From assembly GCA_963834475.1 (NCBI GenBank), contig CAWIBZ010000003.1:26701-90700 (forward strand): DNA of 64,000 bases, given 5' to 3'. Positions 10,897 to 32,596 of this stretch are shown here, in pieces (positions within the stretch are counted from its first letter, which is position 1; every line of letters starts with the position of its first letter). This stretch comes from an uncultured Alphaproteobacteria bacterium. Its GTDB lineage: Bacteria; Pseudomonadota; Alphaproteobacteria; Acetobacterales; Acetobacteraceae. The position numbers and the translations under genes are program-made. The notes under the pieces are model-generated. The model searched no databases. It had not been told where the DNA came from and saw nothing but the letters and a program-made list of their open reading frames with translations.

Positions 10897-11730
10897 ATGC
10901 TCGCCAAAGTCCCAGGCCTTTCTGATGATGTCACCATGTCTTTCGCTCGCATCGACGCAGCCGCTGATGCGGAACGGGAGCGTGTAGCCACTGTTCTGCG
11001 CAGCGGTGCTCCGGCGCCGCTGGATTTGCCGCCGCTGCCAGAGCCGCCGCCAGGTCCGCTCACCCGCAAGCAGAAGCGCGCTTATCAGGAGCGTCTGCGC
11101 CGCGCCCAGAACAAGCGCGACAAACTGGAGCGAGAGAATCTGCGGGCCCAGAAGGAGGAAGCTGAGGCTGAGCGGGTTGCGCCCGGGGTGCGTCGGCATG
11201 CGATTGTCGATGGAGATGGTGTCGTGTTGCGGCCAGCAGTCATCGAGCGGGATGGTGCGACCTACCGGCGCGCGAATGCGATCGCCCATCTGCAGAAGAA
11301 AATGCCGAAGTTCATCAAGGATCGACATGTCCACGCGTGCCAGCGCTTCCTGGCTGCGTGCGAGGAGGTTGGCGGCGGCGTCGGGCTCGGCGCGAGCGAT
11401 TACCTGAGCAAGACGTCTGGCGAAGCGTCCGGTAATGGCGTTTCGGAGGCAAAGCAATCAGCCATCCTTTCGCAATGCACGATGCGAACCGAGCTTGAGG
11501 GTGCGCTCGCGTGGATGGGCGGGGCCAGCGGAATTGTCGCGGCAATCCTCTGCCGAGCCGAAACCGTCGCGTCGTGGTCGCGATCGCAGTCGCCGGAAAT
11601 GGATCCGCGTGTGGGACTGGGGATGCTTATTTCCGGCCTGGATCGCCTGGCGGATTTCTACAATCCGCCGGATCCCCGTGCGCAGCGGATTCGCGTTGCC
11701 TTCTTTGAGGGGATATTTTCTAGAGATTAA
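10897..11730 (+). CDS. Putative late-gene regulator (DUF6456-like, Q position)
   Basis: Last early gene; C-terminal ...ETVASWS...GLGMLISGLDRLADFY HTH-like region. Confidence 0.6.
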   Translation: MLAKVPGLSDDVTMSFARIDAAADAERERVATVLRSGAPAPLDLPPLPEPPPGPLTRKQKRAYQERLRRAQNKRDKLERENLRAQKEEAEAERVAPGVRRHAIVDGDGVVLRPAVIERDGATYRRANAIAHLQKKMPKFIKDRHVHACQRFLAACEEVGGGVGLGASDYLSKTSGEASGNGVSEAKQSAILSQCTMRTELEGALAWMGGASGIVAAILCRAETVASWSRSQSPEMDPRVGLGMLISGLDRLADFYNPPDPRAQRIRVAFFEGIFSRD

Positions 11731-11968: not shown

Positions 11969-13037
11969 GTGTCAAATTCGACGGCATATTATCCGGGCGG
12001 ATCCCGAGCTCGGGTTACCAGAGCCGGCCAAGCAGTCAGAGAGGGGAAGAGCTCCCTAGACGATCTAGTCGCCATTGATGTTTGGCGGGCTGCGCACCAG
12101 CCGGTACCTAATACCTTCCAGGCGATGCTTCGTGCGCGTGCCAAAGGGCAGGATGTCGTCGTAGCGCAACGACACAAGCGTAAACTGACTATCTTTGACA
12201 AGCTTCGTCGTTTTCCAAAGATGGAGCTGGCGCGGATGGACGACATAGCTGGCTGCAGATTGATTTTCCCTGACATCAAATCTCTCCATGATTTTCGCAG
12301 TCAATTTCACAATGCAAAATTTAAGCATCGGCGTCGCAACGGCGTTGAAAAATATGACTATATCGAAAGGCCAAAAGCGACAGGCTATCGGGGCATCCAT
12401 GATGTCTACGAATACGATGCCAATAGTGAAAAGGGTCGCCCCTACAAAGGACTGTTTATCGAGCTGCAGGTACAGAACCTATGTGCAGCATGCTTGGGCG
12501 ACGGCCGTAGAAGTCATCGGTCTGATTACGGCGCATCAGCCCAAATTTCAGCAGGGCGACAAAAGATTTGAGCTTGCAATGGCACTTGCAAGCGAAATTC
12601 TGTCCCGCGCTTTCGAAAATAAGACGTCGTGCTTTCCTCTTCTATCAGACGAAACAACTGTTAAATCATTTTTGGATTTGGACCGAGAAATTGGAATTAT
12701 GAAATTGCTACGCGGACTCAACGCCGCTGACGAAGAAGTAAACGCGAAGAAGAACGTTATATTGATGTTTACCGGTAAAGACGAGCTTGAAGTTCGCTCC
12801 TTTCGAGATGCCTCCGAAGCACTCAGAGTTCTATTCGATTTGGAGAAAGCTAATCCCGGGAATGATATCGTCCTCGTCAGAGCGGCCTCCGGAACTGATG
12901 TCCGTATTGCCTTCAGGAACTACTTTTCCGACGCCCGTGATTTCATTCGTTTGGTCGAAGAGGGCTGCCAAAGCCTCGCGGGGCGAGTTGTTCCGGGAGA
13001 CATTGCGCCCTTTCTCCAACTGGAGAGTAAATTGTAA
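11969..13037 (+). pseudogene. CapRel-like fused toxSAS (RelA/SpoT synthetase) + antitoxin; one frameshift at ~12470
   Basis: QRHKRKLTIFDKL.R, RMDDIAGCR, YDYIERPKATGYRGIH, IELQ/YRT..QHAWATAVE; C-terminal DIVLV...AFRNYFSD; lower GC; extra G in CAGGTAC. Confidence 0.8.
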
Positions 13038-15263: not shown

Positions 15264-17286
15264 GACGCGGCGCTACGAGCGGGGTTACCAAGCGCTCCTA
15301 GCTGGTCTGAACGATGCGCGGCATCAGAACCTGAAGCCGCCGCCGAAACTGACCTTGAGCCAGTGGGCGGATCGCTATGCGGTCCTTTCGCCAGAGACGA
15401 GCGCCCAGACTGGCCGATTTCGAGCCTACGCCTATCAGGTGGGCATGATGGATGCGATCACCGATCCGGCCGTAACATCGGTCACGGTGATGAAGGGAGC
15501 GCGTGTCGGCTACACGAAGGTGCTTGATCACACGATCGGGTACTTCCTTCATCAGGATCCATCGCCGATTCTGGTCGTTCAACCCCGCGTCGAGGACGCC
15601 GAGGACTACAGCAAGACCGAGATCGCACCGATGTTGCGCGATGTGCCGGTACTGGCGCAGATCGCGGGCGACCCGAAGGCCAAGGATGGCAGTCAAACCA
15701 TCCTTAAGAAGACGCTGCTGAATGGGTCCAGCCTGACCCTGGTCGGTGCCAATAGCCCGGGCGGCTTCCGGCGCATCACCGTCCGCGTTGCTCTCTTCGA
15801 TGAGGTGGACGGCTATCCGTCCGGCGGTGCTGGGTCGGAGGGCGACCAGATCGCCCTTGGCATCAAGCGCACTGAGACTTTTTGGAACCGCAAGATTGTG
15901 CTCGGCAGCACCCCCACGGTGAAGGGCTTGAGCCGGATCGAGAAGAGCTGGGAACAGAGCGACCAGCGCCGATATTTTGTGCCCTGCCCCCATTGCGGCG
16001 AAATGCAGTATCTGGAATGGGGCGGCAGGGATTCACCTCACGGCATCAAATGGCGCAAGGATGAACAGGGGCGCCATCTTCCCGAGACCGCGGTCTATGT
16101 TTGTCGTGCCAACGGCTGCATCATCGAGGAGGCCGATAAGCCCGAGATGATCGCGGCCGGCGAGTGGCGCGCATCGAAGCCATTCAACGGCCATGCCGGC
16201 TTCCACATCTGGGCTGGCTACAGCCTCCATGTAAATGCGTCGTGGGCGAACCTGGCGGCCGAGTGGCTCGAGGTAAAAGACGATCCGCTGCGGCGTCAGA
16301 CGTTCATCAACCTGGTGCTCGGCGAGCCTTACGAAGACCGCGGCGATAAGGCGCTGAGCGAGCGCATCTTAGCCGCGCGCACTGAGGTATGGGCTGGAGA
16401 GGTGCCTACCGGCGTCGCGGTGCTGACGGCGGCGGGCGACGTGCAGGACGATCGCGTCGAGATTGAGATCGCGGGCTGGGGCGCGAACGAGGAACGGTGG
16501 AGCATCGCTCACGAGGTCATCGAAGGTGATCCCGACAGCCCGGAGCTCTGGCAGCAAGTTGACGCCTACCTGAAACGCAAATGGCGTCGCGCTGACGGTA
16601 GAGAGTTTGAAATCGCATCGGCCTGCATTGATTCCGGCGGCCATCACACGCAGAAGGTCTATGAGTTCTGCAAGGCGCGGCTCGGCCGCCGCATATGGGC
16701 AGTGAAGGGCGAATCTGCGCAAGGCGGCGCCCGATCTCCCGTGTGGCCGACCAAGAAACCGAGCGCGCGAAACAAACAGGCATTCCGTCCGGTCATCATC
16801 GGCGTGAATGCAGCTAAAGACCTCATCCGGTCTCGGCTTGCCCAAAAGCAACCGGAGCTGGGGGAACCAAGCCCCGGCTACATGCATTATCCGACCGATC
16901 GGGATATCAATTTTTTTGCCCAGCTCATATCCGAACGGCTGGTGGTGAAAACGATCAACGGCCAGCGTTACCGCGTGTGGGAACTGACACCGGGAAGAGC
17001 GAACGAGGCGCTGGATCTCGCCGTTTATTCGTACGCTGCCCTCTGTGGACTCCTGCATTTCGGCTTGAGACTGAACCAGCGAGCCGAGGCAGTCACCAAG
17101 CCATACGTCGCCGCCCGCGCCGAACCACCGCCGCAAGCGCCCGCGGCCATGATCCAGGGCCCGGTCTACACGCCGGCCCCGCCCGCCGGGGTGCCCCAGA
17201 CGCCTGCCCCTCGGGGTCCAACGGTTCAGATGGCGCCCCCGACCAGACAACGCCGCAGTTTCTCCGGCCGCTTAGCCGGGGCCTGA
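15238..17286 (+). CDS. Terminase large subunit, lambda GpA family
   Basis: KGARVGYT Walker A, LFDEVD Walker B, STPT, CPHCG, DVQDDR, IDSGG, NEALD. Confidence 0.97.
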   Translation: MTEPAPPAETRRYERGYQALLAGLNDARHQNLKPPPKLTLSQWADRYAVLSPETSAQTGRFRAYAYQVGMMDAITDPAVTSVTVMKGARVGYTKVLDHTIGYFLHQDPSPILVVQPRVEDAEDYSKTEIAPMLRDVPVLAQIAGDPKAKDGSQTILKKTLLNGSSLTLVGANSPGGFRRITVRVALFDEVDGYPSGGAGSEGDQIALGIKRTETFWNRKIVLGSTPTVKGLSRIEKSWEQSDQRRYFVPCPHCGEMQYLEWGGRDSPHGIKWRKDEQGRHLPETAVYVCRANGCIIEEADKPEMIAAGEWRASKPFNGHAGFHIWAGYSLHVNASWANLAAEWLEVKDDPLRRQTFINLVLGEPYEDRGDKALSERILAARTEVWAGEVPTGVAVLTAAGDVQDDRVEIEIAGWGANEERWSIAHEVIEGDPDSPELWQQVDAYLKRKWRRADGREFEIASACIDSGGHHTQKVYEFCKARLGRRIWAVKGESAQGGARSPVWPTKKPSARNKQAFRPVIIGVNAAKDLIRSRLAQKQPELGEPSPGYMHYPTDRDINFFAQLISERLVVKTINGQRYRVWELTPGRANEALDLAVYSYAALCGLLHFGLRLNQRAEAVTKPYVAARAEPPPQAPAAMIQGPVYTPAPPAGVPQTPAPRGPTVQMAPPTRQRRSFSGRLAGA

Positions 17287-17291
17287 GCGCG

Positions 17292-17335
17292 TTCAGCGCC
17301 GTGAGGCGCCACGTCCCTCTGATGGAGACTTCCCT
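17292..17335 (+). promoter_or_regulatory. Late-leader GUGA hairpin/RBS motif, copy 1
   Basis: GCGCC-GTGA-GGCGC...CGTCCCTCTGATGGAG; repeated at 21730 and 25823. Confidence 0.65.
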
Positions 17336-17602
17336 ATGCGCTTCAACCCGCGAACGTCGATCTTCGCGGGCATGCCTCGGCCGCAATTGGAAGCGGCGTT
17401 GCGCAGCGCGCAGCAGGCATACGTTGAACTATCCAGCGGGGCGAAGGTTGTTACCGCATCCTATAGTCAGGGTGATGGGGCCAAATCGGTCACCTACACG
17501 GCCGCGACGCTCCCGAACCTCGTCGCCATGATCAAGGAACTGCAAGCCCAACTTGGCATCGTCCGCCATGCGCGGCGCCCGCAGCGGTTCTGGTTTCGCT
17601 GA
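17336..17602 (+). CDS. Head-to-tail joining protein gpW
   Basis: AQQAYVELSSGAKVV..SY.QGDG.KSVTY...L...I.ELQAQLG; between TerL and portal. Confidence 0.88.
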   Translation: MRFNPRTSIFAGMPRPQLEAALRSAQQAYVELSSGAKVVTASYSQGDGAKSVTYTAATLPNLVAMIKELQAQLGIVRHARRPQRFWFR

Positions 17603-19271
17603 TGGTCAAAATCCTCGGGCCTGACGGCCAGCCACTACAGCCAGTGCGGCAACGTGGCATCGCTGGCGGGCCGCCTCGCGCTCGAGCATTGCACGGTCGC
17701 GGGCACGCGCCATATGACGCGGCGGACCTTTACAATCCGCAGATGGCTGCATGGACGCCATATCTGTGGTCGCCAGATGGCGAGACTAGTCAGTTTTTTC
17801 GTGACCGCATCGTCTCGCGCGCCCGCGACGTCGAGCGCAACGATGGCTGGGCACGCGGCGGCATCACGCGGATCCTGGATAACGTCATCGGTGCGGAGTT
17901 CCGGCCGATCAGCAAGCCTGACTATCGGGCGCTGTCATACCACACCGGAAACAAGGCCTTTGACGCCGTTTGGGCCGATGAATTCGGCCATGCGATTGAC
18001 GCCTGCTGGCGCACCTGGTCGGACGATATCGGCCACCACGCCGATGCCATGCAGTGCCTGACCGTTCCGCAGCTCATGTGGGTCGCGATGCGGCACAAGC
18101 TGATTGACGGCGATGCGCTGGCGGTCATGCTTTACCGGCCGGAGATCCTTGGTCCAGGTCGGGCGCGCTATGCCACCTGCGTCCAGGTGATTGATCCGGA
18201 CCGGCTCAGCAACCCGCAGTTGAAGTTCGATGACAACGCGAACCGCGGTGGCGTCCTGGTCGACGATTTCGGCGTGCCGCAGGGCTATTGGATCCGGCGA
18301 GCGCACCAGGGCGACTGGTTCAGCGCGGCGAAAAGCGTCCAATGGGATTTCCTCCCGCGCGCCACGGACTGGGGCCGGCCGATCGTGGTCCACGACTACG
18401 ATCACGACCGCGCGGCGCAGCACCATGGCGGCATCGGCGTTCTACGCCGATTCTGCAGCGCCTGAAGATGCTCAGCCGCTACGACAGCACCGAGCTCGAC
18501 GCGGCGGTCATCAACGCGATCTTCTCGGCCTATGTCCGCAGCCCCTACGATCAAGGAGATGGTCGATGAGGCAATGGCAGCCGGCGACGGCGCCGAAGAC
18601 GTGCCGCTCGGCGAGTATCAGGACATGCGCCGGGATTGGTGGCGGGATCGCCGCTCGCTGATCGGCGACGTGCAGATGACGCATCTGTTCCCGGGCGAAG
18701 AGATCGGCACGGTCAATGCCGCCAGGCCGACGACGAATTTCGAGCCGTTTGAGGTCGCCATCCTCCGCCACGTCGCGGGCGGCATCGGCGTGACCTATGA
18801 ACAGCTGAGCGGCGACTTCTCGCGGACCAACTATTCAAGCTTTCGCGGCGCCACGAACGAGAGTTTTGAAAACTTTCAACCGGCGGGCCAAGGGGTTCGA
18901 AGTTGGCTTCGCCAACCCGATCCGTGCGGCATTCCTGGAAGAGGTGATGGACGTCGAAGATGTGCCGCTTCCGGCGGGCGCGCCGGCCTTCATGGATTTC
19001 CGCGTCGGCCTATTCGAAGTGCCGCTGGCTGAAGCCAGGCCGCGGTTGGACCAATCCCCTCGACGAAATCCGCGCATCAACGCTCGCCATGCAGGGTGGA
19101 TTGTCCACGCTGGAGAACGAGGCGGCTGAGCAGGGCGCTGACTGGGAAGAAATCGTAGACCAGAGAGCCGTCGAGATCGCGCGCTTCAAGGAGCGCGGGC
19201 TCGAATTGCCAGAAATCTATCAGGGCGTCGTATCCCAGCCGGACGGCGGGAAGATTGGATCGGGAGGGTAA
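17602..19271 (+). pseudogene. Lambda-family portal protein, about 4 frameshifts
   Basis: SRARDVERNDGWA, IDPDRLSNP, YEQLSGDFSRTNYSS, PGRGW..P..E spread over successive frames. Confidence 0.9.
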
Positions 19272-19272
19272 A

Positions 19273-20165
19273 ATGATGAACCGCCTCCCTCACCTCGCTC
19301 AGCGCATGTTCAACGTCCCGGTCGCGATCGCGCCGGCGAAAGCCGAGGTCATCATCGCCGCCTTGGCTGACCGGCTGGGCATCGCTCACATGTTCCGGGC
19401 CAATGGTGAGCCGTCGCGCTCACGCCAGTGGCATTCGACGATGACGGCGAAGTGCTTTCAGCACCGCGATCCGACCGCGGCGATAAGGGATATGATATCG
19501 TCGAAGGCGTGGCGGTAATCCAGGTCTGCGGAACGTTAGTGCAGAAGAACGGCTATCTGCGGCCCTTCAGCGGGATGACGGGTTACGATGGCATCCGGCA
19601 GAATTTCTGACTGCGCTTTACGATCCGGCCGTCAAGGCGATCGTGCTGGACATCGACAGTCCGGGCGGCGAGGTGCGCCGGGCTGTTTCGATCTTGTGGA
19701 CGAGATCTACCATGCCCGTGGCGAAAAGCCGATCTGGGCAATCCTCAACGAGATTGCCTACTCGGCGGCCTATGCCATCGCCAGCGCAGCGACCACATCA
19801 CCGTCCCGCGCACCGGCGGCACAGGATCGATCGGCGTCGTGCGCTGCGCACGTCGACTGTCGCAAGGCGCTGGACGGGGGCGGGCGTAGCCGTAACATTC
19901 ATCCAATACGGCGCACGCAAGACTGATGGCGCGGCCGAAAAGCCGCTCAGCGACGAAGCGCTGGCGCGGTTCCAGGCCGACATCGACAGCATGGGCGAGA
20001 TTGTTCGTTGAGACCGTCGCCCGCAATCGCGACATCGCCGCGAGCAAGATCCGCGCGATGGAGGCTGGAACATTTCTAGGTGCTGCGGGGGTGCGATCGG
20101 GCCTCGCTGATGCCGTTATGGCTCCCGACGCCGCCTTCCGCGAGCTGCTCAACAGCCTCGCCTGA
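19273..20165 (+). pseudogene. S49 head maturation protease (gpC-like), several frameshifts
   Basis: SGMTGYDGI, LDIDSPGG, AYSAAYAIASA, GARKTDG, GLADAV in shifting frames. Confidence 0.88.
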
Positions 20166-20185
20166 CCCTCAAGGAGTAATATCAC

Positions 20186-20884
20186 ATGCGACAGACCCTG
20201 ATGGCGGGCGCATCCTCGTTCGCCCACCTGCTCGGCCGCGCGCCGAAAGCCGCCAAAGCCGCCGACAAGGACAAAGATCCCACCTGCGCCGACGACGATC
20301 TGGACGACGAGAAGGGCGACGGCGACGATGAGGGCGATGGCCCGAAGGACGGCAAGAAGTCCAAGCGCGCCGAAAGCCCGGAGAAGGATGAAGAGACCGA
20401 CGAGCGCGAGGAACGCGACGAGGAGGAGAGCGGCGACGCCAAGAAGTCGAAGAAGGCCAAGGGCAAGCGCGCCGAGGCCGATGACGACGAAGGCGACGAC
20501 GGCGAGTCCGGCGATGACGACGAGGAAGGCGACGACGGCTCCGATGGCGCCGACATGCGCAAGAAAAGCGCCCGCGCGGCTCGTCTGCGCGAACGCGCCC
20601 GCTGCTCCGCGATCTTCAAGGACGCCGCCGCCGGCAAGAACCCGGCGCTGGCCGCGCAGCTCGCCTTCGGCACCTCCCTGCCGCGCAGCGAGGCGATCAG
20701 CGTCCTCCGCGCGGGCGGCCTGGCTGTCGCGTCTTCGCCACGCCGCCCGACGCTCGACGAGCGCATGGCGGCCGTGAAGGTGCCCTCGGTCGGTGCTGGC
20801 GATGCCGGTCGTCCGGCCTCCGGCGCACAGAGCGTTGCGCAGCAAATCATCGCGGCGGGCAAGCGCGCCCGCGGCGAAGCCTGA
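20186..20884 (+). CDS. Scaffold-like acidic head protein
   Basis: D/E/K low-complexity tract; ERARCSAIF...LAF.T.L motif; between protease and decoration protein. Confidence 0.75.
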   Translation: MRQTLMAGASSFAHLLGRAPKAAKAADKDKDPTCADDDLDDEKGDGDDEGDGPKDGKKSKRAESPEKDEETDEREERDEEESGDAKKSKKAKGKRAEADDDEGDDGESGDDDEEGDDGSDGADMRKKSARAARLRERARCSAIFKDAAAGKNPALAAQLAFGTSLPRSEAISVLRAGGLAVASSPRRPTLDERMAAVKVPSVGAGDAGRPASGAQSVAQQIIAAGKRARGEA

Positions 20885-20908
20885 TCCACACCACAGGAGC
20901 ACCATTCG

Positions 20909-21692
20909 ATGGTTCTTATCGTCAACACTGTCGGCGACAACCCTCAGCAGCCGATGATCACGGCTGAGACCTACATTCCGGATCAACTGATTGCCGGGGC
21001 AAAGAATCTCGTCACCCAGCCGATCGTGCTCGCGGCCGGTTCCCAGCTGCCGCGCGGCACCGTGCTCGGCCAGCAGACCAGCTACAGCGTGACCGCGACT
21101 GCCGGCACCAATACCGGCACCGGCACCATCGGCTCGATCAGCGCCGGGTCCACGGCGCAACTCGATATCACCATCGGCGCCACGACCTACGGTTATCTGC
21201 TGACCGCGACCAGCGCGACCACCTTCACGGTCCAGTCGCCGGAAGAGCAGACCCCGGGCGGACAGACGACCGGCGGCTCGACCGCGCTGCCCAACGCGAC
21301 GGTCGGCACGGCCTACAACTCCGGTGGCATCGCCTTCACCATCACCGCCGGCGGGACCGCCTTCGTCGCGGGCGATAGCTTCACCCTGAACGTGGTCGAT
21401 TCGATCGGCAACTTCATCGTGTCGGTCAAAACGGCGAGCGACGGCAGCCAGAACCCCGTGCGCGATCCTCGCGGACTTTGCCGATGCTACCAATGGACCG
21501 GTCACCACCGGCGCCTATGTCGCGGGCGAGTTCAACGTGAACGCGATCAACTATGACGCGTCCTGGACCCCGGAACTGCTGACGACCGCGCTGCGGCAAT
21601 ACGCGATCTTCCTCAAGGGCTCGGTGGTCGCCGCGGATCCGCCGAACGACAGCGCGCTGTCGACGCAGCCGACCGTTCAGAATTTCGCCTGA
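20909..21692 (+). pseudogene. Head decoration protein (gpD-like, Thr/Gly-rich insertion), frameshift at ~21460
   Basis: YIPDQLIAG...LPRGTVLG...ASDGSQNP then ILAD...Y.AGEFN in the next frame. Confidence 0.85.
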
Positions 21693-21729
21693 CGGGCGAG
21701 CCTCATCCGCCCCTTAGGCAAGGGCGTCC

Positions 21730-21775
21730 TGCACTGCCGTGACGGCAGCGCGTCCCTGAGATGGAGCCTCCTCAC
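21730..21775 (+). promoter_or_regulatory. Late-leader GUGA hairpin/RBS motif, copy 2
   Basis: CTGCC-GTGAC-GGCAG...CGTCCCTGAGATGGAG. Confidence 0.65.
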
Positions 21776-22851
21776 ATGGCCGGTGATCCGTTCGTCTATG
21801 ACACCAACACGCTCATTCAGGTGGTCCCCAACCTGAAGCGGGCGCAGTCCTTCCTGCTCGACAAGTTCTTCCCGAACATCGTCCTGAGCGATTCCGAGTT
21901 CGTCTCGATCGACGTCGACGTCGGCAAGCGCCGGATGGCGCCGTTCGTCTCGCCGCTGGTCGAGGGCAAGCTGGTCGAGCAGCGCCGCATCCAGACCAAC
22001 ATCTTCAAGCCCGCCTACATCAAGGACAAGCGCGCGCCGGATCTGCGCAAGCCGGTCCGCCGCATGATCGGCGAGCGCATCGGCGGCGAGCTGACCGGCG
22101 CCGAGCGCGAGATGGCGAACCTCGAATTCGAGATGACGGATCAGATCGACATGCTGACCCGCCGCCTCGAATGGATGGCCGCCAGGCGCTGCACGACCGG
22201 CACCGTGACGGTCGTCGGCGAAGGCTTCCCGACCGCGCTGATCGATTTCGGCCGCGACTCCAGCCTGACGGTTGCGCTCACCGGCAATGACCAGTGGGGC
22301 GTCTCGGCCAACTTCAACGCCGACGGCCGTGATCCGGTCCCCGTCGCAGACGATCGAGAATGGCAGCACGCAGATCCTGAAGGAGTCCGGCGCGCAGGTC
22401 ACGGACATCATCTTCACCACGACCCCCTGGCAGAAGTTCCTCGACCGCCGAGGGCGTGCAGGGCGCGGTCTACTATCCGAAGCTGGGCGACTTCCCGAAC
22501 TCCATCAACCCGGGCGCGCAGATCCAGCAGGGCGCCGTCTACAAGGGCCGCTGGGGTCAGTACGACCTCTGGCTCTACAACGACTGGTACGTCGACGAGA
22601 ACAACATCGAACAGCCGATGATTCCGGATGGAACCATCGTGCTGTCCGGCCAGGAAATGATGGGCACCCGCGCCTTCGGCCAGATCCTGGACCCCGCCTT
22701 CAATTACGAGGCGCTGGCCTTCGCGCCGAAGACCTGGGTCGAGAACGATCCGGCGCAGCGCTTCATCCTGATGCAGTCGAGCCCGATCGTGATCCCGTCG
22801 CGCGTCAACGCGGCGATGGCGATTACGGTGTGCGCCGGGAGCCAGAACTGA
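21776..22851 (+). pseudogene. Major capsid protein, lambda gpE family, frameshifted
   Basis: FLLDKFFP, RRMAPFVSP, FKPAYIKDK, RRLEWMA, W.ENDPAQRFILMQSSP across three frames. Confidence 0.92.
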
Positions 22852-23105
22852 TGAGCGATCAGAAACCCGCCGCCCGGCCCGGTGAGGCGAAGCAGGAGCT
22901 GGTAACGGCGTCGATCGCCGCGCGCCGCTCTCTGGTGATCAACGGCCAGACGCACGGGCCGGGAACGCAGGTGCGGCTCCCGGTGGAGGAACATGCCCGC
23001 CTCCTCGCCGCCGGCTTCCTGCACGACACCCGTGTCGTGCAGCTCGAGCCCGGCTCGGGCCCGCAGTTCCGCGGGCCGGTCGACGGCGTCGTGCGCCCGA
23101 CCTGA
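22851..23105 (+). CDS. Small virion/head-completion protein
   Basis: HGPGTQVRLPVEEHARLLAAGFL; coupled to the capsid stop. Confidence 0.65.
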   Translation: MSDQKPAARPGEAKQELVTASIAARRSLVINGQTHGPGTQVRLPVEEHARLLAAGFLHDTRVVQLEPGSGPQFRGPVDGVVRPT

Positions 23106-23108
23106 GCC

Positions 23109-23474
23109 ATGGCGATCGACTGGGACCAGGTGGTGATCAGGCCGACGGTCGCGATCTTCGGCGAGCGCGTGCGCTATGAGCCGAGCCTCGGCCGCCCCTT
23201 CCCGGTCACCGGCGTCTTCGACCAGCAGTATCTCGAGCTCACCCCGCTCGGCCGAGGTGGGCCCGATAGCGAAAGCTGGTCGATGGCTTCGCCAGGCGCG
23301 ATCAGTGCCGAGATGCCGGTGCTCGGAATCCGGCTCGCGCAATTCCGCACGCCGCCCGAGCAAGGCGACCTGCTGACGATCGAGAGCGGCCGCTTCCGCG
23401 GCGAGCGCTTCATCGTCAAGGAAGTCCGCGAGGACGGCCACGGCGGCGCAAAGCTCCTGCTCAACGCGGTGTGA
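23109..23474 (+). CDS. Head-tail joining (stopper, gpFII-like)
   Basis: GVFD...P.QGD.LTI....FIVKEVREDGHGGAKLLL. Confidence 0.8.
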   Translation: MAIDWDQVVIRPTVAIFGERVRYEPSLGRPFPVTGVFDQQYLELTPLGRGGPDSESWSMASPGAISAEMPVLGIRLAQFRTPPEQGDLLTIESGRFRGERFIVKEVREDGHGGAKLLLNAV

Positions 23475-23478
23475 TGAC

Positions 23479-24021
23479 ATGCCCCTGATCGACGGGATTT
23501 CCCGCAAAGCGCTCGAGGCCCGGGCGATCAAGGCCCTGATCGACGCCCGGACCATGGCCTTCGATCGGGTCTATTCACCACGATCCTGGCCGACCAAGGC
23601 CGACCTCTTCCCGGCGATCATCGTGCAGACACCGGTCGAGCGAAAAGTCGCGATCGGCCGCGGCATCGACCAGTTCAATGCCTACATCAGGCTCGTCGCT
23701 GTCGGCCGCGTCTGGCGCGCGTCAGAAGAAGAGGCGCAAGCCGATATCGATCTGCTCTCCGGTCAGATCGAGGAAGCGCTGCTCTGCAACAATGATTTCT
23801 CCAACGCCGTGCAGCAGTTCACGACGATTGAAACCACCTCCGCCATCAACACGGACAGCCGCAATATCATCGGCGACGTCGGCCTCGCCTTCGAATGCGA
23901 GGTCTACCAGGTCTATGGACCGGTCGGCGTGCCGCTCGTGGGCGTCGACATGACCATCACCAACGGACCCGGCGGCGCCCCATTGGCGCAGGCGAAGGTC
24001 TCCTTCCCGCAGACGTCCTAG
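23479..24021 (+). CDS. Tail terminator-like protein
   Basis: RVYSPRSWPT..D.FPAIIV...; position before the sheath. Confidence 0.7.
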   Translation: MPLIDGISRKALEARAIKALIDARTMAFDRVYSPRSWPTKADLFPAIIVQTPVERKVAIGRGIDQFNAYIRLVAVGRVWRASEEEAQADIDLLSGQIEEALLCNNDFSNAVQQFTTIETTSAINTDSRNIIGDVGLAFECEVYQVYGPVGVPLVGVDMTITNGPGGAPLAQAKVSFPQTS

Positions 24022-24036
24022 TTCAGGAGCACAGAT

Positions 24037-24237
24037 ATGTTCGTCAAGCCAGGGACGAGCCGGCGCACCGGCTTGACCGTGAAGGTGCGCGTGCCGCGCA
24101 CCAAGGCGCTGCTGCCGGCCGACGGCGCCGAGGTTCCCAATACGGGCTTCTGGCTGCGCCGCCTGCGCGACGGTGACGTCGTCCTCGCCGATGCCCCAGC
24201 CCCGACGCCGGCCGTGGTGCAGAAGGAGGAGCGCTGA
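24037..24237 (+). CDS. DUF2635 Mu-like small tail protein
   Basis: MFVKP...VR.P....LPADGAEVP...FWLRRLRDGDV. Confidence 0.85.
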   Translation: MFVKPGTSRRTGLTVKVRVPRTKALLPADGAEVPNTGFWLRRLRDGDVVLADAPAPTPAVVQKEER

Positions 24238-24238
24238 T

Positions 24239-25762
24239 ATGTCCGGCACTTCCATCAATATCCCCGGCTATAACGCCCAGAATCGCGTCCCCGGCGTCTT
24301 CGCCGTGGTCGACGCCAGCCAGGCGAATACCGGCCAGTATAATCAGCTGACGTTGCTCATCGGTCAGATGACCTCCGCGGGCACGGCGGTGCCGGGCCAG
24401 GCGGTGATCTCGGCCGGAATCGGCGAGGCGCAGACGAGCTACGGCGCCGGCTCGCAGCTTGCGATCGCGGTCGAGCGCTATCGCAACCTCGACCCCTTCG
24501 GCACGGTCTATTGCCTGCCGCTCGCAGACGCCTCCGGCGCGATCGCGGCGACCGCGACCATCGCGCTCTCCGGCACGGCGACGGCCGCAGGAACGATCCC
24601 GCTCTATATCGACGGCAATTTCATCCAGGTTCCCGTCAATCTCAGCGAGACCGCAGCGGCGGTCGCCACCGCTATGGCAGCGGCGATCAACGCCTTTACG
24701 ACGCCGGACGGCAATCCGCTGTCGATGACCGCGACCGTGACTTCGGGTACCGTCACCCTCACCCAGCTCAACAAAGGCACCATCGGCAACGAGTCCGTCG
24801 TCCTGCTCTCCTTCCTCGGCGTCGGTGCCGGCCAGGGCCAACCCGGCACGACCAACGTCCCCGGTATCACTGCGACGATCACCGCTTTCGCCGGTGGAGA
24901 GACCGATCCGACGGTCGCCACCGCGCTCGCGAACCTGCCGGCGACCTCCTACGATTTCATCTGGTGCCCCTACCACGATGCGACCTCGCTCGGCGCGATC
25001 AGCTCCTTCCTCGGCGAATCGGCGGGCCGCTGGAACTGGTCGAGCGAGCTCTTCGGCGTCGCCTTCACCGCCTATAACGGCACCTTCGCCACCCGCACGA
25101 CCTGGGGCAGGACGCAGAACGACCAGTTCCTCACCGCGATCGGCGCCTACGGCAGCCCGAACCCGGACTGGCACTGGTCGGTCGACTACTGCGCGGCGGC
25201 GGCCGTCAGCCTCCGCGCCAATCCGGCCGTGCCGGTCGGTGGCCTCGCCGGCGGTGTCGCGCTCAATGTCATGGCCCCGGCGGTCGCGAACCTCGACAGT
25301 TTCGAGGAGCAGGACACACTCCTGTTCGACGGTCTGTCGACCTATGTGGCGACACAATCCGGCCAGGTGCTGGTCAGCCGCGCGATCACGACCTTCCAGC
25401 AGAGCAGCGCCGGCGTGCCGAACGATGCCTTCCTCAGCCTGAACGTTCCCTACCAGTTGATGGCCTATATCCGCGCCGTGCGGTCGATGATCCAGTCGCA
25501 GTTCAACCAATGCATCCTGGTCGCGGACGGCACCAAGATCCCGGCCGGCTCCGCGATGGTGACCAGCCAGACGATCCTCTACTCGATCATCGCCCTCTAT
25601 CAGCAGCAGTGCACGACCGGCCTGGTGCAGAACGCCACCGCTTTCGCGGCGCAGGCGGTCGCCCAGAATGCCGGTAATGGGCTGGTGGCGGCGATGCTGC
25701 CGATCATGCTCGGCAACCAGCTGATCAACGTGGCGATGGATATCCGCTTCACCCAGCCCTGA
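24239..25762 (+). CDS. Tail sheath protein (Mu gpL-like)
   Basis: RVPG.FA.VDASQAN, YGAGSQL, GRW, LLFDGLST, RAITT.Q. Confidence 0.93.
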   Translation: MSGTSINIPGYNAQNRVPGVFAVVDASQANTGQYNQLTLLIGQMTSAGTAVPGQAVISAGIGEAQTSYGAGSQLAIAVERYRNLDPFGTVYCLPLADASGAIAATATIALSGTATAAGTIPLYIDGNFIQVPVNLSETAAAVATAMAAAINAFTTPDGNPLSMTATVTSGTVTLTQLNKGTIGNESVVLLSFLGVGAGQGQPGTTNVPGITATITAFAGGETDPTVATALANLPATSYDFIWCPYHDATSLGAISSFLGESAGRWNWSSELFGVAFTAYNGTFATRTTWGRTQNDQFLTAIGAYGSPNPDWHWSVDYCAAAAVSLRANPAVPVGGLAGGVALNVMAPAVANLDSFEEQDTLLFDGLSTYVATQSGQVLVSRAITTFQQSSAGVPNDAFLSLNVPYQLMAYIRAVRSMIQSQFNQCILVADGTKIPAGSAMVTSQTILYSIIALYQQQCTTGLVQNATAFAAQAVAQNAGNGLVAAMLPIMLGNQLINVAMDIRFTQP

Positions 25763-25822
25763 CCGAGGCGGGCCCCGGCCCGCTTCGCTTCGCCCTGACC
25801 GCCGCCTGGGCGCGGCGGCCTC

Positions 25823-25865
25823 TGCAGCGCCGTGATGGCGCCGCCTCCCCCAGATGGAGATTCTC
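25823..25865 (+). promoter_or_regulatory. Late-leader GUGA hairpin/RBS motif, copy 3
   Basis: GCGCC-GTGAT-GGCGC...CCTCCCCCAGATGGAG. Confidence 0.65.
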
Positions 25866-26240
25866 ATGAGCGGCTCGAATATGAGGCTCGCCGGCGTCGT
25901 CGCCCTCACGATCAATGGCGCCACCTGGAACGTGGTCGGGGATCTTGAGTATTCCCCGACGACCGTGCTGCGCGAGACGCAGAAAGGCCAGAGCGCCGTC
26001 GAGGGTTATTCGGAAATGCCGCAGCAGGGCTCGGTTTCCGCGAACCTGCGCGACCAGGGCGGCACGACCATCGCCAGCCTGAATAGCCTCACCAGCGCCA
26101 CCATCATCGCCCAGCTCGCCAACGGCAAGACCGTCTATGCGACGCCGATGTGGCAGGTCGGCGAAATTGCCGTGAACACCCAGGAGGCCTCCTTCAAGAT
26201 CACCTTTGAAGGGCCCTCCGTCATTGAGGATATCGCCTGA
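25866..26240 (+). CDS. Tail tube protein (Mu gpM-like)
   Basis: RLAG...RET.KGQ..V.GYSEMP...LANGK. Confidence 0.9.
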   Translation: MSGSNMRLAGVVALTINGATWNVVGDLEYSPTTVLRETQKGQSAVEGYSEMPQQGSVSANLRDQGGTTIASLNSLTSATIIAQLANGKTVYATPMWQVGEIAVNTQEASFKITFEGPSVIEDIA

Positions 26241-26557
26241 TGTCGGATACGACCGAGACGAAGGACTTGCCGGATCAGATCACGATCGCACTGAACCCGC
26301 CGGTCGTTTTCGATCAGCGGGAATATCCGCAGCTCGTGTTGCGCGAGCCGCGCGCCGGCGACGTGCTGCTCGCTGAGCAGCAGGTCAAGAACAGCGTCAA
26401 TCCCTGGACGATCCGCAATCGCCAGATCCATCTCATCGCCAAATGCGCCGATGTGCCGCTGCCGGTGATCGAGAAGCTGCCGATGCGGAAGTACAATCAG
26501 GCCTGGGCCTTCATCAGCCCTTTTTTCGACGCTGGCCTCGAAACTACCGCGAACTGA
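26240..26557 (+). CDS. Tail assembly chaperone (G)
   Basis: LVLREPRAGD motif; between tube and tape measure. Confidence 0.85.
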   Translation: MSDTTETKDLPDQITIALNPPVVFDQREYPQLVLREPRAGDVLLAEQQVKNSVNPWTIRNRQIHLIAKCADVPLPVIEKLPMRKYNQAWAFISPFFDAGLETTAN

Positions 26558-26691
26558 TCGCGCAGCTCACCCGCTTCTATCACTGGCATCCGGCGGCCAC
26601 GGACGACATGACCGCGTCCCAGCTCGCCTGGTGGGTGGTGCAGGCGAACGAGATGGTGGCGAGGGAACGACAGAATGTCCGGCGCCGCTAA
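26518..26691 (+). other. -1 programmed frameshift site and G-T extension
   Basis: In-frame C CCT TTT TTC slippery heptamers; the -1 frame encodes FYHWHP...MTASQLAWW (P2 E'-like). Confidence 0.75.
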
Positions 26692-28753
26692 CTCCAATAT
26701 CTCCGTCAAAATCGGCTTCGACGACCAGGCGCTCGACCGCATCCCGGCGGCCAATAAGCGCATCCAGTCTCTTGAGACGAGCTCGGGCCGCGCCGCCCGC
26801 GGCATCCAGACCATGGTGCAAGGCGGCGGCACCGAGAAGCTCGCCAAGGGCATGCGCGGCCTCGCCCGCGAGAGCCTCCAGGCCTTCGAGAATATCGGCC
26901 GCATCATGGGCCCGCTCGAGGTCATCACCGGCGCGGCCAGTGTTGCCGGTCTCGCCCGGCTGACCGCCGGATGGGGCGATCTCACGACACAACTGGGCTA
27001 TTCCGCACAGCGTGCCGGCGTCGGCGTTGGTCAGCTCAGCGCACTCCAGGGCGCGGCAAGGCTCGTCGGTATCTCGACCCAGTCGGTCACCGCCGGCATG
27101 ACGGCGCTGAACGACAACCTGACCGCTGCCGCGACCGGCCACGCGCCCGAGGCGATCGCCGCCTTCAATTACCTGCACATCGCGCTGCGTGACGCGAACG
27201 GGCAGCTTCGCTCATCGACATCGGTGCTACCCGAAATCGCCGACAAGCTGGCGGGGATCAAAAACCCGGCGATCCAGGCGCAGCTCGCGACCATCCTGCT
27301 CGGCGGCGCGGCCGCCGACCTGCTGCCATTCCTCCGGCAGGGCTCGGCAGGGATCGCGCAACTGACCCAGGAGGCCAAGAGCTACGGCACGACCAGCGCC
27401 GCCGACGTGAAGATCTCCAACCGGTTCACCCATCAGCAGGGTGAGCTGATGGACGCGATCGGCGGCCTCTCCAATGTCATGGGCGAGAAATACCTGCCCG
27501 CCCTCGGCAATGCCGAGCAGGGCCTCGCCAACTTCATCAAGACGAATAAGGAAACGATCGCGGACGCGATCCCGGCCATGATCCTGGCCTTCGGTGGCCT
27601 CGGGCTCTATTTGAAAGGTCCCTTCCTCAAAGTCATCCGAAAGGCCCTGCTCGGGGACTTGGCTCAGACGATTGAGCAAGCAGCGACGCAGGCGAAGACG
27701 GAGGTAGCGGCTGCGGCAGAGGATGCGGCCTCGGCAGCCAATGCGCCCTCGTCCGGAATCCCCCGCCGGAGCTCGAGTGGCCTCAACAAGGGCCTCTTTG
27801 TCGGCTCGCTGCCGATGTATTTTGATTTGCTGGGCCAATGGCTGGATCCAAATTCGCGACCGACCTTCCGCGATACGCAGAGCCTGCACGATCAGTTCCC
27901 CGGCCTGAACTGGGCGCCTGGAACGAACCCAAACCCGCCATCCGGCACGGCGGCGGGCCTTCCTAAAAACCCGATCGTTACCCCGCCCGGGCCAGCCAGC
28001 GCGCCCCGTGGCATCCGCAACGACAATCCATTGAATCTCACCTACGTGCCTGGCCAGCCTGGCGTTGAGGGTTCGGATGGAACGTTTGGCGTTTACAAGT
28101 CTATGGCAGCCGGCATCGGCGCCGACCTGCATCAGCTCATCCTCAATCAACGGAAGGGCGACACAACTCTCGCGCAGCAGATCACGGCCTGGGCGCCCCC
28201 TGGGACGAACGACACCTCCGGATATATCGCACGGGTCGCTAAAATGACTGGCATCGATCCAGGGGCGCCTCTGGACGTGACCAACCCAAAGACTGCGGCG
28301 GCCGTGGTCGGAGCAATGGCCGTCGTTGAAAATGGGCAGGGCTTGTCAGCCAAAGACATCAGTGCCGGAGTGCAGCTTGCACTCGGACAGTCTGCCGCAT
28401 CCCAAGCATCGCCTTCGGCTGGCATCCCCGCTGTACCCGCGTCGCCTCCTGGCCCGCACGGGCACGGTGCATCCACCGCGGTCGGTATCCCCGAAGCGCC
28501 AGACCAGGGGCCATCCTTGTCGCTTCCCGCTTCGCACGCGCCCTCCGGCCCCGCGCAAACCGTCGCCGGGGGCGCCGGCACGGGTGCTGCCGCCAGCGAG
28601 ACCACGGTCAAAGGCTCGGCGACGGTCAGCGTCAATATCAAGGGAGCGCCGCCCGGTACCCAAACGAGCGCCACCAGCGACGGCGATCTGTTTGCCAATG
28701 CCGGTCCGGTCAAGATCCAGAGCAGCGCGGTCGGCCAGGGGATGCAGGCATGA
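26675..28753 (+). CDS. Tape measure protein with C-terminal lysozyme-like domain
   Basis: Ala-rich helical N-terminus; PRGIRNDNPLNL...WAPPGTNDTSGYIARV. Confidence 0.85.
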   Translation: MSGAANSNISVKIGFDDQALDRIPAANKRIQSLETSSGRAARGIQTMVQGGGTEKLAKGMRGLARESLQAFENIGRIMGPLEVITGAASVAGLARLTAGWGDLTTQLGYSAQRAGVGVGQLSALQGAARLVGISTQSVTAGMTALNDNLTAAATGHAPEAIAAFNYLHIALRDANGQLRSSTSVLPEIADKLAGIKNPAIQAQLATILLGGAAADLLPFLRQGSAGIAQLTQEAKSYGTTSAADVKISNRFTHQQGELMDAIGGLSNVMGEKYLPALGNAEQGLANFIKTNKETIADAIPAMILAFGGLGLYLKGPFLKVIRKALLGDLAQTIEQAATQAKTEVAAAAEDAASAANAPSSGIPRRSSSGLNKGLFVGSLPMYFDLLGQWLDPNSRPTFRDTQSLHDQFPGLNWAPGTNPNPPSGTAAGLPKNPIVTPPGPASAPRGIRNDNPLNLTYVPGQPGVEGSDGTFGVYKSMAAGIGADLHQLILNQRKGDTTLAQQITAWAPPGTNDTSGYIARVAKMTGIDPGAPLDVTNPKTAAAVVGAMAVVENGQGLSAKDISAGVQLALGQSAASQASPSAGIPAVPASPPGPHGHGASTAVGIPEAPDQGPSLSLPASHAPSGPAQTVAGGAGTGAAASETTVKGSATVSVNIKGAPPGTQTSATSDGDLFANAGPVKIQSSAVGQGMQA

Positions 28754-30324
28754 GTGGAGCGATTGCCCGCGTCGCGGGGAGTGTGGGCGCCGTCCAGGGC
28801 GCGATCGGCCAAGTCGGCTCCCTGGTCGGGCAAGCGGCCTCGATCGGCCGCAGCATCGGCCAGATCGGCAATGAGGTGTCGAACCTCTTCGGTGGCGGCG
28901 GCGGTTACCTCATCCCGGCCTCCGGCCTCGGCCCCTGGGCCGCGACACTGCAGACCGCATCCTGGCGTGGCCTCCCCTTTGCCGTGCGCTCCAGCCTCAT
29001 CCGCCGCGGCCGCCGCGTCGCGGTGCATGAATACCCGTTTCGTGACGAGGTCTGGGTCGAAGATCTCGGCCGCGGCACAAGGATGGTGTCGTTTTCGGCC
29101 TTCCTGATCGGCGACGACGTCTTCCAGCAGCGCGACGCCATGGCGGCCGCGGCGGAGACCGCCGGCACTGGGTTGCTGGTCCATCCCTCGCTCGGCAGCA
29201 TGTCGGCCAGCCTGATCGAGTTCAGCGCCGGCGAGCGCGCCGATCTCGGCCGCGTCGTCGAGATCGAGTTTTCCTTCATCCAGAGCGGGCAGGATCAGCC
29301 GCTCTATCCGACCACGGTCATCTCGACCCAGTCCCTGGTGCTGAGCGCCGCCTCAACGTCGCTTCTGGCGACTGCCGCGGACTGGGTCTCGAACGTCACC
29401 GCGGCGGTCGCGCTCGGCTACGCCGCGGTGCAGGGCGCGATCGGCCCGGTGATCGGCATCGTCAGCCAGGTGCTCGGCACCGCCCAGGCGATTGTCGCCC
29501 TCGGCAGCGAGGCCATTGCCCTGCCCGCCGAGATCATCGGCAGCGTCTTCGGCAGCCTCGGCCAGAGTCTCGGCCTGGTCAACGATGCCGGCATTGCCTT
29601 CGGCGCCGTCGCCGGCCTGGTCGGCAATTACGGCCGCTATGCCAATGCCGGGGTGACGACGCCCCTGCCCGCCTCGGCGACGGTCGAGTCTCAGCTCGAT
29701 CTCCTCACCGCCAACCGGGCGGCCGTGGTGAGCGCGATGACCGCCGTCTTGGCAGGGGCCATCGCCGCCCCGCTGGACCTGCCGGCGACCATGCAAACGG
29801 CCATCGCGGCCTTCCAGGACTGCATTCAGAGTCCAGCCGATCAGCTCCGGCTGCTCTCCGTGCTCGCCGGTTATGCGCCGGCCGTCACCAGCAACACGGC
29901 GCCGATCGGCGCCGCGATCACGACCATCGAGACAAGGTTCGCCGCGCTGGTGCGACGCACCGCCTGCGCGGCGCTGGCGACCGCGGTGGCCGGCTATCAG
30001 CCGACCAGCTACGACGACGCGATGACGCAGCTGCAGGGTGTGACCGCGCTCCTGGATGCTGAGTCCATCTCGGCGGCCGATGCCGGCGACACGGACAGCT
30101 ATCTCGCCCTGCGCGCGCTGCGCGCCGCGGTCTCCGACGATCTGCTGACGCGCGGCGCCCAGCTGCCCACGCTGATGACCGTTACCACCCCGGTGCCGAT
30201 GCCCTCGCTGACGCTGGCCTATGAGCTCTACGGCGATGCGACGCGCAGCGATGACCTCATCGCCCGCGCCGACCCGATCGCGCCGCTCTTCATGCCGACG
30301 AGCTTCCAGGCGCTGAGCAGCTGA
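28750..30324 (+). CDS. DNA circularization protein (Mu gpN-like)
   Basis: LQTASWRGLPF...GRRVAVHEYPFRD..WVEDLGR; C-terminal PSLTLAYELYGDATR. Confidence 0.92.
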   Translation: MSGAIARVAGSVGAVQGAIGQVGSLVGQAASIGRSIGQIGNEVSNLFGGGGGYLIPASGLGPWAATLQTASWRGLPFAVRSSLIRRGRRVAVHEYPFRDEVWVEDLGRGTRMVSFSAFLIGDDVFQQRDAMAAAAETAGTGLLVHPSLGSMSASLIEFSAGERADLGRVVEIEFSFIQSGQDQPLYPTTVISTQSLVLSAASTSLLATAADWVSNVTAAVALGYAAVQGAIGPVIGIVSQVLGTAQAIVALGSEAIALPAEIIGSVFGSLGQSLGLVNDAGIAFGAVAGLVGNYGRYANAGVTTPLPASATVESQLDLLTANRAAVVSAMTAVLAGAIAAPLDLPATMQTAIAAFQDCIQSPADQLRLLSVLAGYAPAVTSNTAPIGAAITTIETRFAALVRRTACAALATAVAGYQPTSYDDAMTQLQGVTALLDAESISAADAGDTDSYLALRALRAAVSDDLLTRGAQLPTLMTVTTPVPMPSLTLAYELYGDATRSDDLIARADPIAPLFMPTSFQALSS

Positions 30325-30371
30325 GGGGCTGATCCGACGGAGCGCGCTGTCCGCGGCCTTCTGGGAAAAGC

Positions 30372-31553
30372 ATGACCAACCAACCGTCCATGATCACCGG
30401 CGGCCAGAATGCGAAGCCGCCCAGCAACAAGCTGACGCTGATCGCCGCCGGCCAGGCCCTGACCGGCTGGGAGGCGGTGCGCGTCACCCGCAGCCTCGAT
30501 CGCGTTCCGGCCGATTTCGATATCACGCTGACGGAGCGCTATCCGGGCCAAGCGGCGGCCGTTGTGGTCAATCCCGGTGATCCCTGCACCGTGCTGATCG
30601 GCTCGGACACGGTGCTGACCGGCTATATCGACCGCTACAATCCGTCCTTCTCCTCGCGCAGCCATCGGGTCCGCATCATGGGCCGCAGCAAATGCGAAGA
30701 TTTGGTCGACTGCTCGATCTCTCCCGCGGCGCTCAACGGCATGTCGATGACGACGACCTCGCTGCAGCTGCTCGCGCAGGAGCTTGCAAGCCCCTACGGC
30801 ATCACCGTCTCCTCGCTCACCGGCACCAATGTCCCGGTCGCGGCGATAGGCGGCGGCCCGCTCACCTTTTCGGCGATCCTCACGGAAACGCCCTATGAGA
30901 TCATCGAGCGCGTCGCGCGCTATGCCGGCGTGCTCGCCTATGACGGCACGGACGGCAATTTGATCCTCGCCAATGTCGGAACGTCAACGATGGCGAACGG
31001 CTTTCAGCAGGGCCTGAACGTCGAGGCGGCCGATGTCAGCTACTCGATGGACCAGCGCTTCCAGGAGTACCTGCCGGCGCTGATGTCGAGCAATATGTTC
31101 GGCCAGCAGGGCATTGGCGGTGTCACCTATGCCCCTGCCTATGACAAAGGCGTGCCACGCTTCCGCGAGCTGATCGTGGTCAGTGAGCAATTTGCCATCA
31201 GCCAGCAGTTCGCTCAGCTGCGCATCCAATGGGAGATGGCCCGCCGGCTCGGCCGGTCCCAGGCAGTGCGCCTGGTCTGCGACTCCTGGCGCGACAGTGC
31301 GGGCACGCTCTGGGCACCGAACGCCTATGCCTCGATCAACCTGCCGGCGCTCAAACTGACGCCGCCAAAGCCCTGGATCATCGGCGAGGTCAGCTACGTC
31401 CGCGATGACCAGGGCACCCATGCCGAGCTCCTGCTCATGCCGAAAGAAGCGTTCCTGCCGGAGCCGACGATCCTGACGCCGTTTTTCTGGGACCCGACCA
31501 ACGGGCCGCCACCCGTGGGCGGCGGCGCCGCTGCACTCCCGACCGGAGGCTGA
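30372..31553 (+). CDS. Baseplate hub (Mu gpP/gp44-like)
   Basis: GWEAVRVTRS, GRSKCEDLVDCS, WEMARR.GRS, WRDSAG.LW.PN. Confidence 0.92.
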   Translation: MTNQPSMITGGQNAKPPSNKLTLIAAGQALTGWEAVRVTRSLDRVPADFDITLTERYPGQAAAVVVNPGDPCTVLIGSDTVLTGYIDRYNPSFSSRSHRVRIMGRSKCEDLVDCSISPAALNGMSMTTTSLQLLAQELASPYGITVSSLTGTNVPVAAIGGGPLTFSAILTETPYEIIERVARYAGVLAYDGTDGNLILANVGTSTMANGFQQGLNVEAADVSYSMDQRFQEYLPALMSSNMFGQQGIGGVTYAPAYDKGVPRFRELIVVSEQFAISQQFAQLRIQWEMARRLGRSQAVRLVCDSWRDSAGTLWAPNAYASINLPALKLTPPKPWIIGEVSYVRDDQGTHAELLLMPKEAFLPEPTILTPFFWDPTNGPPPVGGGAAALPTGG

Positions 31554-31555
31554 CC

Positions 31556-32134: not shown

Positions 32135-32140
32135 CCAGAG

Positions 32141-32593: not shown

Positions 32594-32596
32594 CCG

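Follow-up and report, generated by a model that had tools for sequence, protein, structure and literature searches.

A covarying hairpin leader at the Shine-Dalgarno sequence of virion genes in an alphaproteobacterial prophage and in unrelated phages

Introduction

The subunit ratios obtained from late phage messages, and the silence of strong genes in a prophage, are mostly credited to plain ribosome-binding-site strength. A 64,000-nucleotide stretch of DNA from an uncultured member of the Acetobacteraceae (Alphaproteobacteria; contig CAWIBZ010000003.1, positions 26,701 to 90,700; hereafter the window) raises the question of what a repeated RNA leader does at such sites. An original prediction, made from these letters alone, had aligned three leaders upstream of the gpW/portal, major capsid and tail tube genes of a prophage in the window, and had proposed a structured cis-element that controls virion genes. 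We found that this element is a real, widespread and uncatalogued structured leader. It is an RNA fold on the sense strand, located at a fixed distance from the start codons of virion genes. With its 40–70 nt and covarying helices, it defines which bases to mutate and can serve as bait for a binding factor. Depending on which of the readings weighed below is true, it would represent a second phage translational-activation system beside Com of phage Mu, or a natural leader that gives high expression in GC-rich proteobacteria.

Three copies of the leader in the prophage

The prophage combines a lambda-like head with a Mu-like contractile tail, and all of its features described here lie on the + strand. 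The three leaders were re-read from the window sequence and agreed letter by letter with those originally quoted. A single pattern matched the window exactly three times (at 17298, 21736 and 25829) and gave 0 matches in 100 shuffles. In the whole 3.47-Mb genome, the same pattern was found only at these three prophage places, which bears out the earlier statement that early and host leaders carry no copies. A host-general element was rejected, with 0 full copies outside the prophage in its own genome. A covariance model that was built later scored the three leaders at 50–55 bits, and nothing else in the window exceeded 14 bits. When folded alone, the leaders showed ordinary stability (z of −0.3 to −1.5).

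Each copy consists of a hairpin (P1) followed by a short helix (P2) that includes part of the Shine-Dalgarno sequence, and an additional module B may be located upstream. Copy 2 (21731..21769; 55 bits) contains all parts. Its P1 spans 21731-21751 with the loop GUGAC, and its P2 spans 21753-21765. The Shine-Dalgarno GGAG (21763-21766) is followed by the ATG at 21776, which opens the 5′ part of the major capsid protein E gene (21776..22621; PF03864, phrog_29). Module B of this copy (21700..21726) comprises strand a, GCCU (21700-21703), a stem (21708-21712/21722-21726) and a loop of 9 nt, in which AGGC (21716-21719) is complementary to strand a. A second possible partner of this loop is strand d, GCCU (21766-21769). 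The sequence, together with covariation across phages, predicts an H-type pseudoknot here. Copy 3 (25824..25859; 51 bits) precedes the ATG at 25866 of the Mu-like tail tube gene (25866..26240; PF10618, phrog_185), with P1 at 25824-25844 (loop GUGAU) and P2 at 25845/25846-25858/25859. It carries a module-B-like variant (25792..25818), where GCCC (25792-25795) is complementary to the loop GGGC of the hairpin 25799-25818. By analogy with the covariation of module B, these strands probably pair, as the sequence and fold suggest. Copy 1 (17293..17327; 50 bits) has only P1 (17293-17312, loop GUGA 17301-17304) and P2 (17314-17326, pairing with the Shine-Dalgarno GGA). The two outer pairs of this P1 are missing, and the inner 5 pairs alone form. 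The first gene after copy 1 encodes the head-tail adaptor gpW (17336..17602; PF02831, phrog_75), and the portal gene is next.

A GC-rich hairpin upstream of each copy, as had been described originally, was indeed present, but these hairpins are of different types. They are the pseudoknot module (copy 2), its variant (copy 3) and an unrelated hairpin within the last terL codons (copy 1; 17262..17281, from sequence and fold). The compensatory stem swap reported among the three copies was also present. However, it is a single event and therefore weak evidence alone, and the proof of the helix comes from other phages.

P1 is a covarying hairpin with a conserved loop

P1 comprises 5 base pairs, a 1×1 internal loop (A·C or C·C), 2 further base pairs and a loop of the GYGA(N) type. 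The A·C or C·C mismatch was found in 148/176 cases. When a scan was run with the loop left free, GNGA plus an optional base occupied it in 62/76 of the matches listed, where GAAA, GCAA and GUAA were absent. Because the sequence of both the loop and the mismatch is fixed, the conservation exceeds the needs of stability. Other parts are flexible, with a loop of 4 or 5 nt and a linker of 0–3 nt.

In 90 aligned leaders, 6/7 P1 pairs changed on both sides (134 cells vs 38 shuffled), and the covariation score of P1 was 0.385, compared to at most 0.098 when slid; to enter this set, a leader had to pair at the inner three positions and at five or more of the eight, and two rows that were probably chance matches had been removed. 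A scan in which the second stem base was forced off C is the cleaner test of covariation, owing to this pre-filtering. Among the 85 distinct matches listed, the pair was U-A in 64, U·G in 5 and A-U in 3. Thus, P1 is a real helix of the sense strand.

P2 includes the Shine-Dalgarno sequence and module B is optional

P2 has the form UCC-X, a loop of usually 3 nt, and X′-AN-GGA, and the first three Shine-Dalgarno bases are paired in it. In scans that were blind to P2, the third pair (C-G to U-A) was maintained in 62/63 cases (58.2 when shuffled) and the fourth pair (C-G to U-A or G-C) in 55/63 (50.6 when shuffled), a covariation that amounts to 2–4 swap events. A looser P2 test contained mis-anchored rows, and the model-fitted alignment A3 gapped out the variant P2 tails and was left unused. 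The predicted pairing probability of P2 was low (median 0.055 in 125 leaders), and an extended Shine-Dalgarno sequence is a second way to read the GA-N-GGAG run. The P2 loop sometimes holds whole inserted hairpins, including P1-like ones. Taken together, P2 probably holds the GGA of the Shine-Dalgarno sequence.

Module B, a stem with the loop CUU-NGGC-AA, was present in 47/125 leaders. The NGGC of its loop covaried with a GCCN located a few bases upstream (55/83 vs 33.7 shuffled; 0/10,000 shuffles), which shows module B to be an optional, upstream, predicted H-type pseudoknot. GCC also stood directly after GGA in 38/47 leaders with module B, compared to 15/78 leaders without it, although kinship among the leaders inflates this contrast. 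The two partners of the B loop suggest a two-state switch. Module B also occurs on its own, lacking P1 and P2, upstream of capsid and tube genes. Among its matches in 301 genomes, 9/10 had no properly placed start, and one precedes a likely tail gene.

The leader precedes virion genes of unrelated phages

The exact pattern matched 100 IMG/VR loci, whereas a reversed control pattern matched 0. In 90/100 of these loci, a start codon that opens at least 60 codons followed 3–13 nt downstream. Four looser pattern scans were also run; their counts were drawn from the matches listed and are lower bounds, and the motif family is larger than the exact-pattern count. The non-redundant downstream open reading frames (ORFs; n=87) were tallied by hand, with the longer ORF taken where a core preceded two genes. 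Of these, 61 were named by PHROG, 11 belonged to unnamed families and 15 had no match. All 61 named genes belong to the head, connector, tail or packaging functions. They encode 27 major capsid, 15 tail tube, 7 scaffold, 2 sheath and 1 decoration proteins and 9 others, so that 52/61 are high-copy. The proposal of a structured RNA on virion genes therefore held in other phages, both in its enrichment before high-copy proteins at translation starts and in the covariation of P1. The model also flags capsid and tube genes that escape profile searches, with 26/87 downstream ORFs unnamed.

Two or three separate leaders were found in 8/21 fetched carrier phages, typically before the capsid and tube genes. 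Identical cores precede two different genes in phage L223. Tandem P1+P2 units occur within single leaders of L217, L264, L324, L453 (15377-15464) and L415 (18473-18561). In two tandem leaders, the upstream unit ends in GGAU, which lengthens P2 and is not a Shine-Dalgarno sequence. The virion modules with the element are of the HK97, P22, lambda and Mu types. In two satellite-like elements, the motif precedes a first gene that encodes an HTH_17 protein of 64–72 amino acids. One of them (L224:4182-9993, −) carries HTH_17, AAA_25, capsid, protease, portal and HNH genes; the other (L263:7269-16541, +) carries HTH_17, AAA_25 and a gene for a 1217-residue protein, with an int-alpA RNA upstream. Coupling of the leader to an upstream stop codon was rejected, as the distance to the stop varies from −9 to 101 nt.

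In GTDB genomes, 24/44 matches were leaders by our own reading, and the other 20 look like chance matches in coding sequence (one such record, G281, was omitted from later counts). The hosts of these leaders were mostly Alphaproteobacteria, with some Xanthomonadales and Betaproteobacteria and a few metagenome-assembled contigs labelled otherwise. The distribution was patchy, with the motif in 3/251 genomes of the family; the leaders of one family member (G139) were near-identical to those on contigs labelled Acetobacteraceae. Besides the source genome, 151 class-level genomes gave weak partial matches only. Short BLASTN searches against cultured phages returned chance matches only, and phages CcrBL9 and RcXuper gave partial P1 matches only.

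Comparison with known elements

The papers cited in this and the following section were consulted in part, and the comparisons extend to the parts covered. The closest working analogue is, by its described organization, the Com/mom translation gate of phage Mu (PMC6483171). Translation of the late gene mom is gated there at a small GA-loop hairpin, located beside a structure that hides the start signals, and the Com motif is CC(N)2-3GAG in a hairpin loop (PMC6483171). This motif resembles the P1 loop, and the 3′ half of our element, AUCCC...GGAG, is also found at the mom site. A relaxed form, YC-N2-3-GA, was present in P1 of 124/125 leaders, and the best match of our model in 1.7 kb of Mu was the Com-controlled mom start region. 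The two systems nevertheless differ. The Com zinc-finger gene (PF10122) was found in 0/48 carrier records, in 0/8 near-complete ones and not in the prophage, and no Com model matched among 39 small proteins. A mom-type gene was likewise absent from the 48 carriers and the prophage, where the named genes served are those of virions and packaging. Because neither com nor mom is present, the element stands outside the Mu Com/mom system. In unrelated lineages, it also serves several virion genes of a single phage, and it has a longer P1 and the optional pseudoknot.

A positional analogue is found in cluster K mycobacteriophages, where the start-associated sequences (SAS) have a 13-bp consensus that includes the ribosome-binding site just before the starts, with 17-bp inverted repeats sometimes upstream (extended SAS, ESAS; PMC3203893). 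These sites are likewise repeated. However, their sequence is different and they are restricted to one phage cluster, whereas our element covaries and spans unrelated phages. When the 13-bp consensus and the 17-bp inverted repeats, as given in the consulted part of PMC3203893, were compared by eye, only the GGAG core was shared.

Fremin et al. (2023) listed 8,495 automated viral RNA candidates, among them DNAVirus_1925, a 68-nt csRNA candidate from IMG/VR (PMC10690425). In marine phages, it lies before 174 HK97 capsid genes and 17 tail tube genes, and 2 of its bases covary (PMC10690425). As the same gene types lie downstream, DNAVirus_1925 may be our element or module B, in a comparison made by gene context and not by sequence, and our element may already be among the 8,495 candidates without a name. 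Rfam 15 gave no match to the element, either at the gathering threshold (window and 8 more loci) or by E-value (20 diverse loci, late region). The phage-linked Rfam motifs GP20-a/b, int-alpA (RF02996) and Mu-gpT-DE are candidate structured RNAs located by structural or alpA genes of phages, and none of them matches the element; the int-alpA match in L263 lies 1.7 kb from the motif. A full-text literature search, outside of which most subscription papers lay and in which the main texts of PMC5737381, PMC11109978 and PMC8632094 were searched by term, returned no description of the element.

The target consensus of CsrA/RsmA is ANGGA, and a CsrA-type protein had been proposed to bind the leader. 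ANGGA overlaps the Shine-Dalgarno sequence in 125/125 leaders, in a set that was selected with that core. In contrast to CsrA/RsmA targets, the covariation of P2 places GGA in a helix and not in a loop, although P2 is thermodynamically weak. Furthermore, csrA/rsmA was found in 0/48 carrier records and was not found in the source genome, which is 73% complete. CsrA-type binding is therefore not upheld.

A possible translation gate and the alternatives to it

We tentatively read the element as a gate of translation initiation: a conserved, covarying mRNA leader set against the Shine-Dalgarno sequence of virion genes, which, judged by its sequence features, may well be closed by default and opened late by an RNA-binding factor. 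In the closed state, P2 would sequester the GGA. Since P2 is too weak to stand alone, it would need an external hold, which could be stacking on P1, pairing of the B loop with the GCC after the Shine-Dalgarno sequence, or a ligand. The site would then be freed when a factor binds the invariant loop and mismatch of P1, or when the B loop exchanges this GCC for its upstream partner, in a step modelled on the action of Com at mom. Such a gate would silence the late operon's strongest starts in transcripts that are early or leaky, and then switch them on together. A weak yet conserved helix beside a loop and mismatch of conserved sequence suggests a ribosome-binding site that is held in one state, together with a ligand site. 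The HTH_17 first genes of the satellite-like elements also count in favor of the gate, as timing rather than yield would matter there.

Several results weigh against the gate. Besides the few P2 swap events, the mis-anchored rows and the kinship effect mentioned above, the downstream partner d of the B loop showed no covariation of a fourth pair. The exact Com motif was present in 51/125 P1s and in one of the three window copies, and the mom match scored 6.7 bits (E 0.1), compared to 20–61 bits for members of the family. An enhancer would account equally well for the bias toward high-copy genes. The canonical motif was missing from the fetched regions of six cultured phages whose capsid or tube proteins are related (16-3, vB_LagS-V1, two RHph phages, phiAP1 and phiKM1), so the element is dispensable. 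The phage factor suggested originally may exist, but none was found. The search covered 58 flanks and 23 genomes by BLASTP, together with phmmer and the Pfam profiles of CsrA, Com and DUF6456. No protein was common to the 23 genomes (largest cluster 10/23), where our own crude gene calling may miss very small genes. Com and CsrA were absent from the 48 carrier records, and DUF6456 was found in 4/49. The putative late transcription regulator at 10897..11730, which had been put forward as a partner, is DUF6456-like by a weak match (E 0.015). Relatives of this ORF occur in 6/23 genomes, five being profile seeds, and no general link between the ORF and the motif emerged.

In a broader form, P1, P2 and the two-partner pseudoknot would be one portable switch of a late translational regulon across unrelated phages, set on the starts of capsid, tube, sheath and scaffold genes. 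A single RNA-binding factor, either from the host or a very divergent one of the phage, would throw this switch, and satellites would have adopted it on their first gene to sense the late phase of their helper. We regard this extension as doubtful.

Alternatively, and as the nearest rival to the gate, the leader might need no factor and simply give high expression, which is possible but on the unlikely side. P1 and module B would insulate the start from GC-rich neighbors and protect a processed 5′ end, the ribosome would melt a token P2, and the cassette would spread by recombination between phages and leaders. The predominance of high-copy genes, the lack of a shared protein, the weakness of P2, the identical cores in L223 and the multiple leaders of the 8/21 carriers would all be expected, and similar GYGA hairpins precede host ribosomal protein genes (presumably rpsE and rplQ). 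Such a leader leaves several features unaccounted for: the G at loop position 3, the fixed mismatch, the bulged A, the two partners of the B loop, and its presence before low-copy first genes (gpW, terS, baseplate wedge and HTH_17).

It is improbable that the fold is a processing or stability signal, at or beside which a host or phage nuclease would cut to release stable sub-messages for abundant proteins. The intercistronic location agrees with this, as do the further hairpins that are often found upstream, some with U runs. However, a cut site needs neither a fixed distance to the Shine-Dalgarno sequence nor pairing with it. RNase III substrates need stems longer than those here.

Protein-free RNA-RNA docking is hardly likely. 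In this case, the GYGA loop would bind the CC:GG or CU:AG pairs in P2 of another unit (tandem, in another leader or in another molecule) and stabilize the closed state. The CC:GG and CU:AG pair steps are helix receptors of GYRA loops, and the observed P2 swap is exactly from CC:GG to CU:AG. Class-R2 receptors with a CCC...GGG core tolerate G at loop position 3 (PMC2275092), and both tandem units and P1-like hairpins inside the P2 loop occur. On the other hand, the loop type is independent of the P2 pair type, within a unit the adjacent P2 is out of reach of P1, and GYRA/helix contacts are weak, in the micromolar range (PMC7913685). P2 also falls outside the class-R2 definition in the consulted part of PMC2275092, as it has CC:GG, a 2-nt bulge, one more pair and a mostly 3-nt closing loop, without the asymmetric loop.

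GafZ is presumably a DUF6456 protein. It antiterminates the gene transfer agent cluster of Caulobacter (bioRxiv 2023.11.12.565669). A DNA or transcription signal (an internal late promoter, as originally offered, an activator site or a pause site) served by the 10897-11730 protein is very improbable: P1 is a DNA inverted repeat and DUF6456-type regulators occur in several carriers, but the tolerated sense-strand G·U pairs, the variable loop and spacer lengths, the hairpin insertions and the pseudoknot covariation point to RNA, sigma-70 consensus hexamers and an intrinsic terminator (stem plus U run) are absent at the three copies, and relatives of the regulator are confined to the 6/23 genomes.

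Related leaders and neighboring genes

Several other leaders resemble the element in part. P1-like GYGA hairpins without P2 were observed before host ribosomal protein genes (G000:C5 near 1106846, −; L730:1501-1529, −), whose names we assume from their N-termini. In Rhodobacter phage RcXuper, a P1-like hairpin (L713:1501-1560) precedes a gene of 141 codons. The capsid leader of Acetobacter phage phiAP1 (L746:6990-7042) contains a 9-bp hairpin, rich in AU and capped by a GUGU loop, upstream of UUUCC...GGAAA, and is possibly a degenerate P1+P2 below the model threshold. A different capsid leader, which is conserved and apparently structured, is common to the Rhizobium phages 16-3, RHph_Y3_1 and RHph_TM3_3_14B (L743:4030-4108, L745:5790-5880 and L748:4790-4880).

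Within the window, the portal, protease, decoration and capsid genes (17602-22621) are split across several frames. The capsid E frame departs from its family match near residue 180, and the gene appears frameshifted. Unlike these head genes, terL and most tail genes (24173-33760) are uninterrupted. The split reflects either assembly errors or decay that is specific to the head and has spared the tail. A low-GC RelA/SpoT-like gene (small alarmone synthetase-like; 11864-13037), located between the late regulator and the terminase genes, occupies two frames and is a possible defence moron. The early operon encodes a GapR-like DNA-binding protein (PF10073; 7338-7619).

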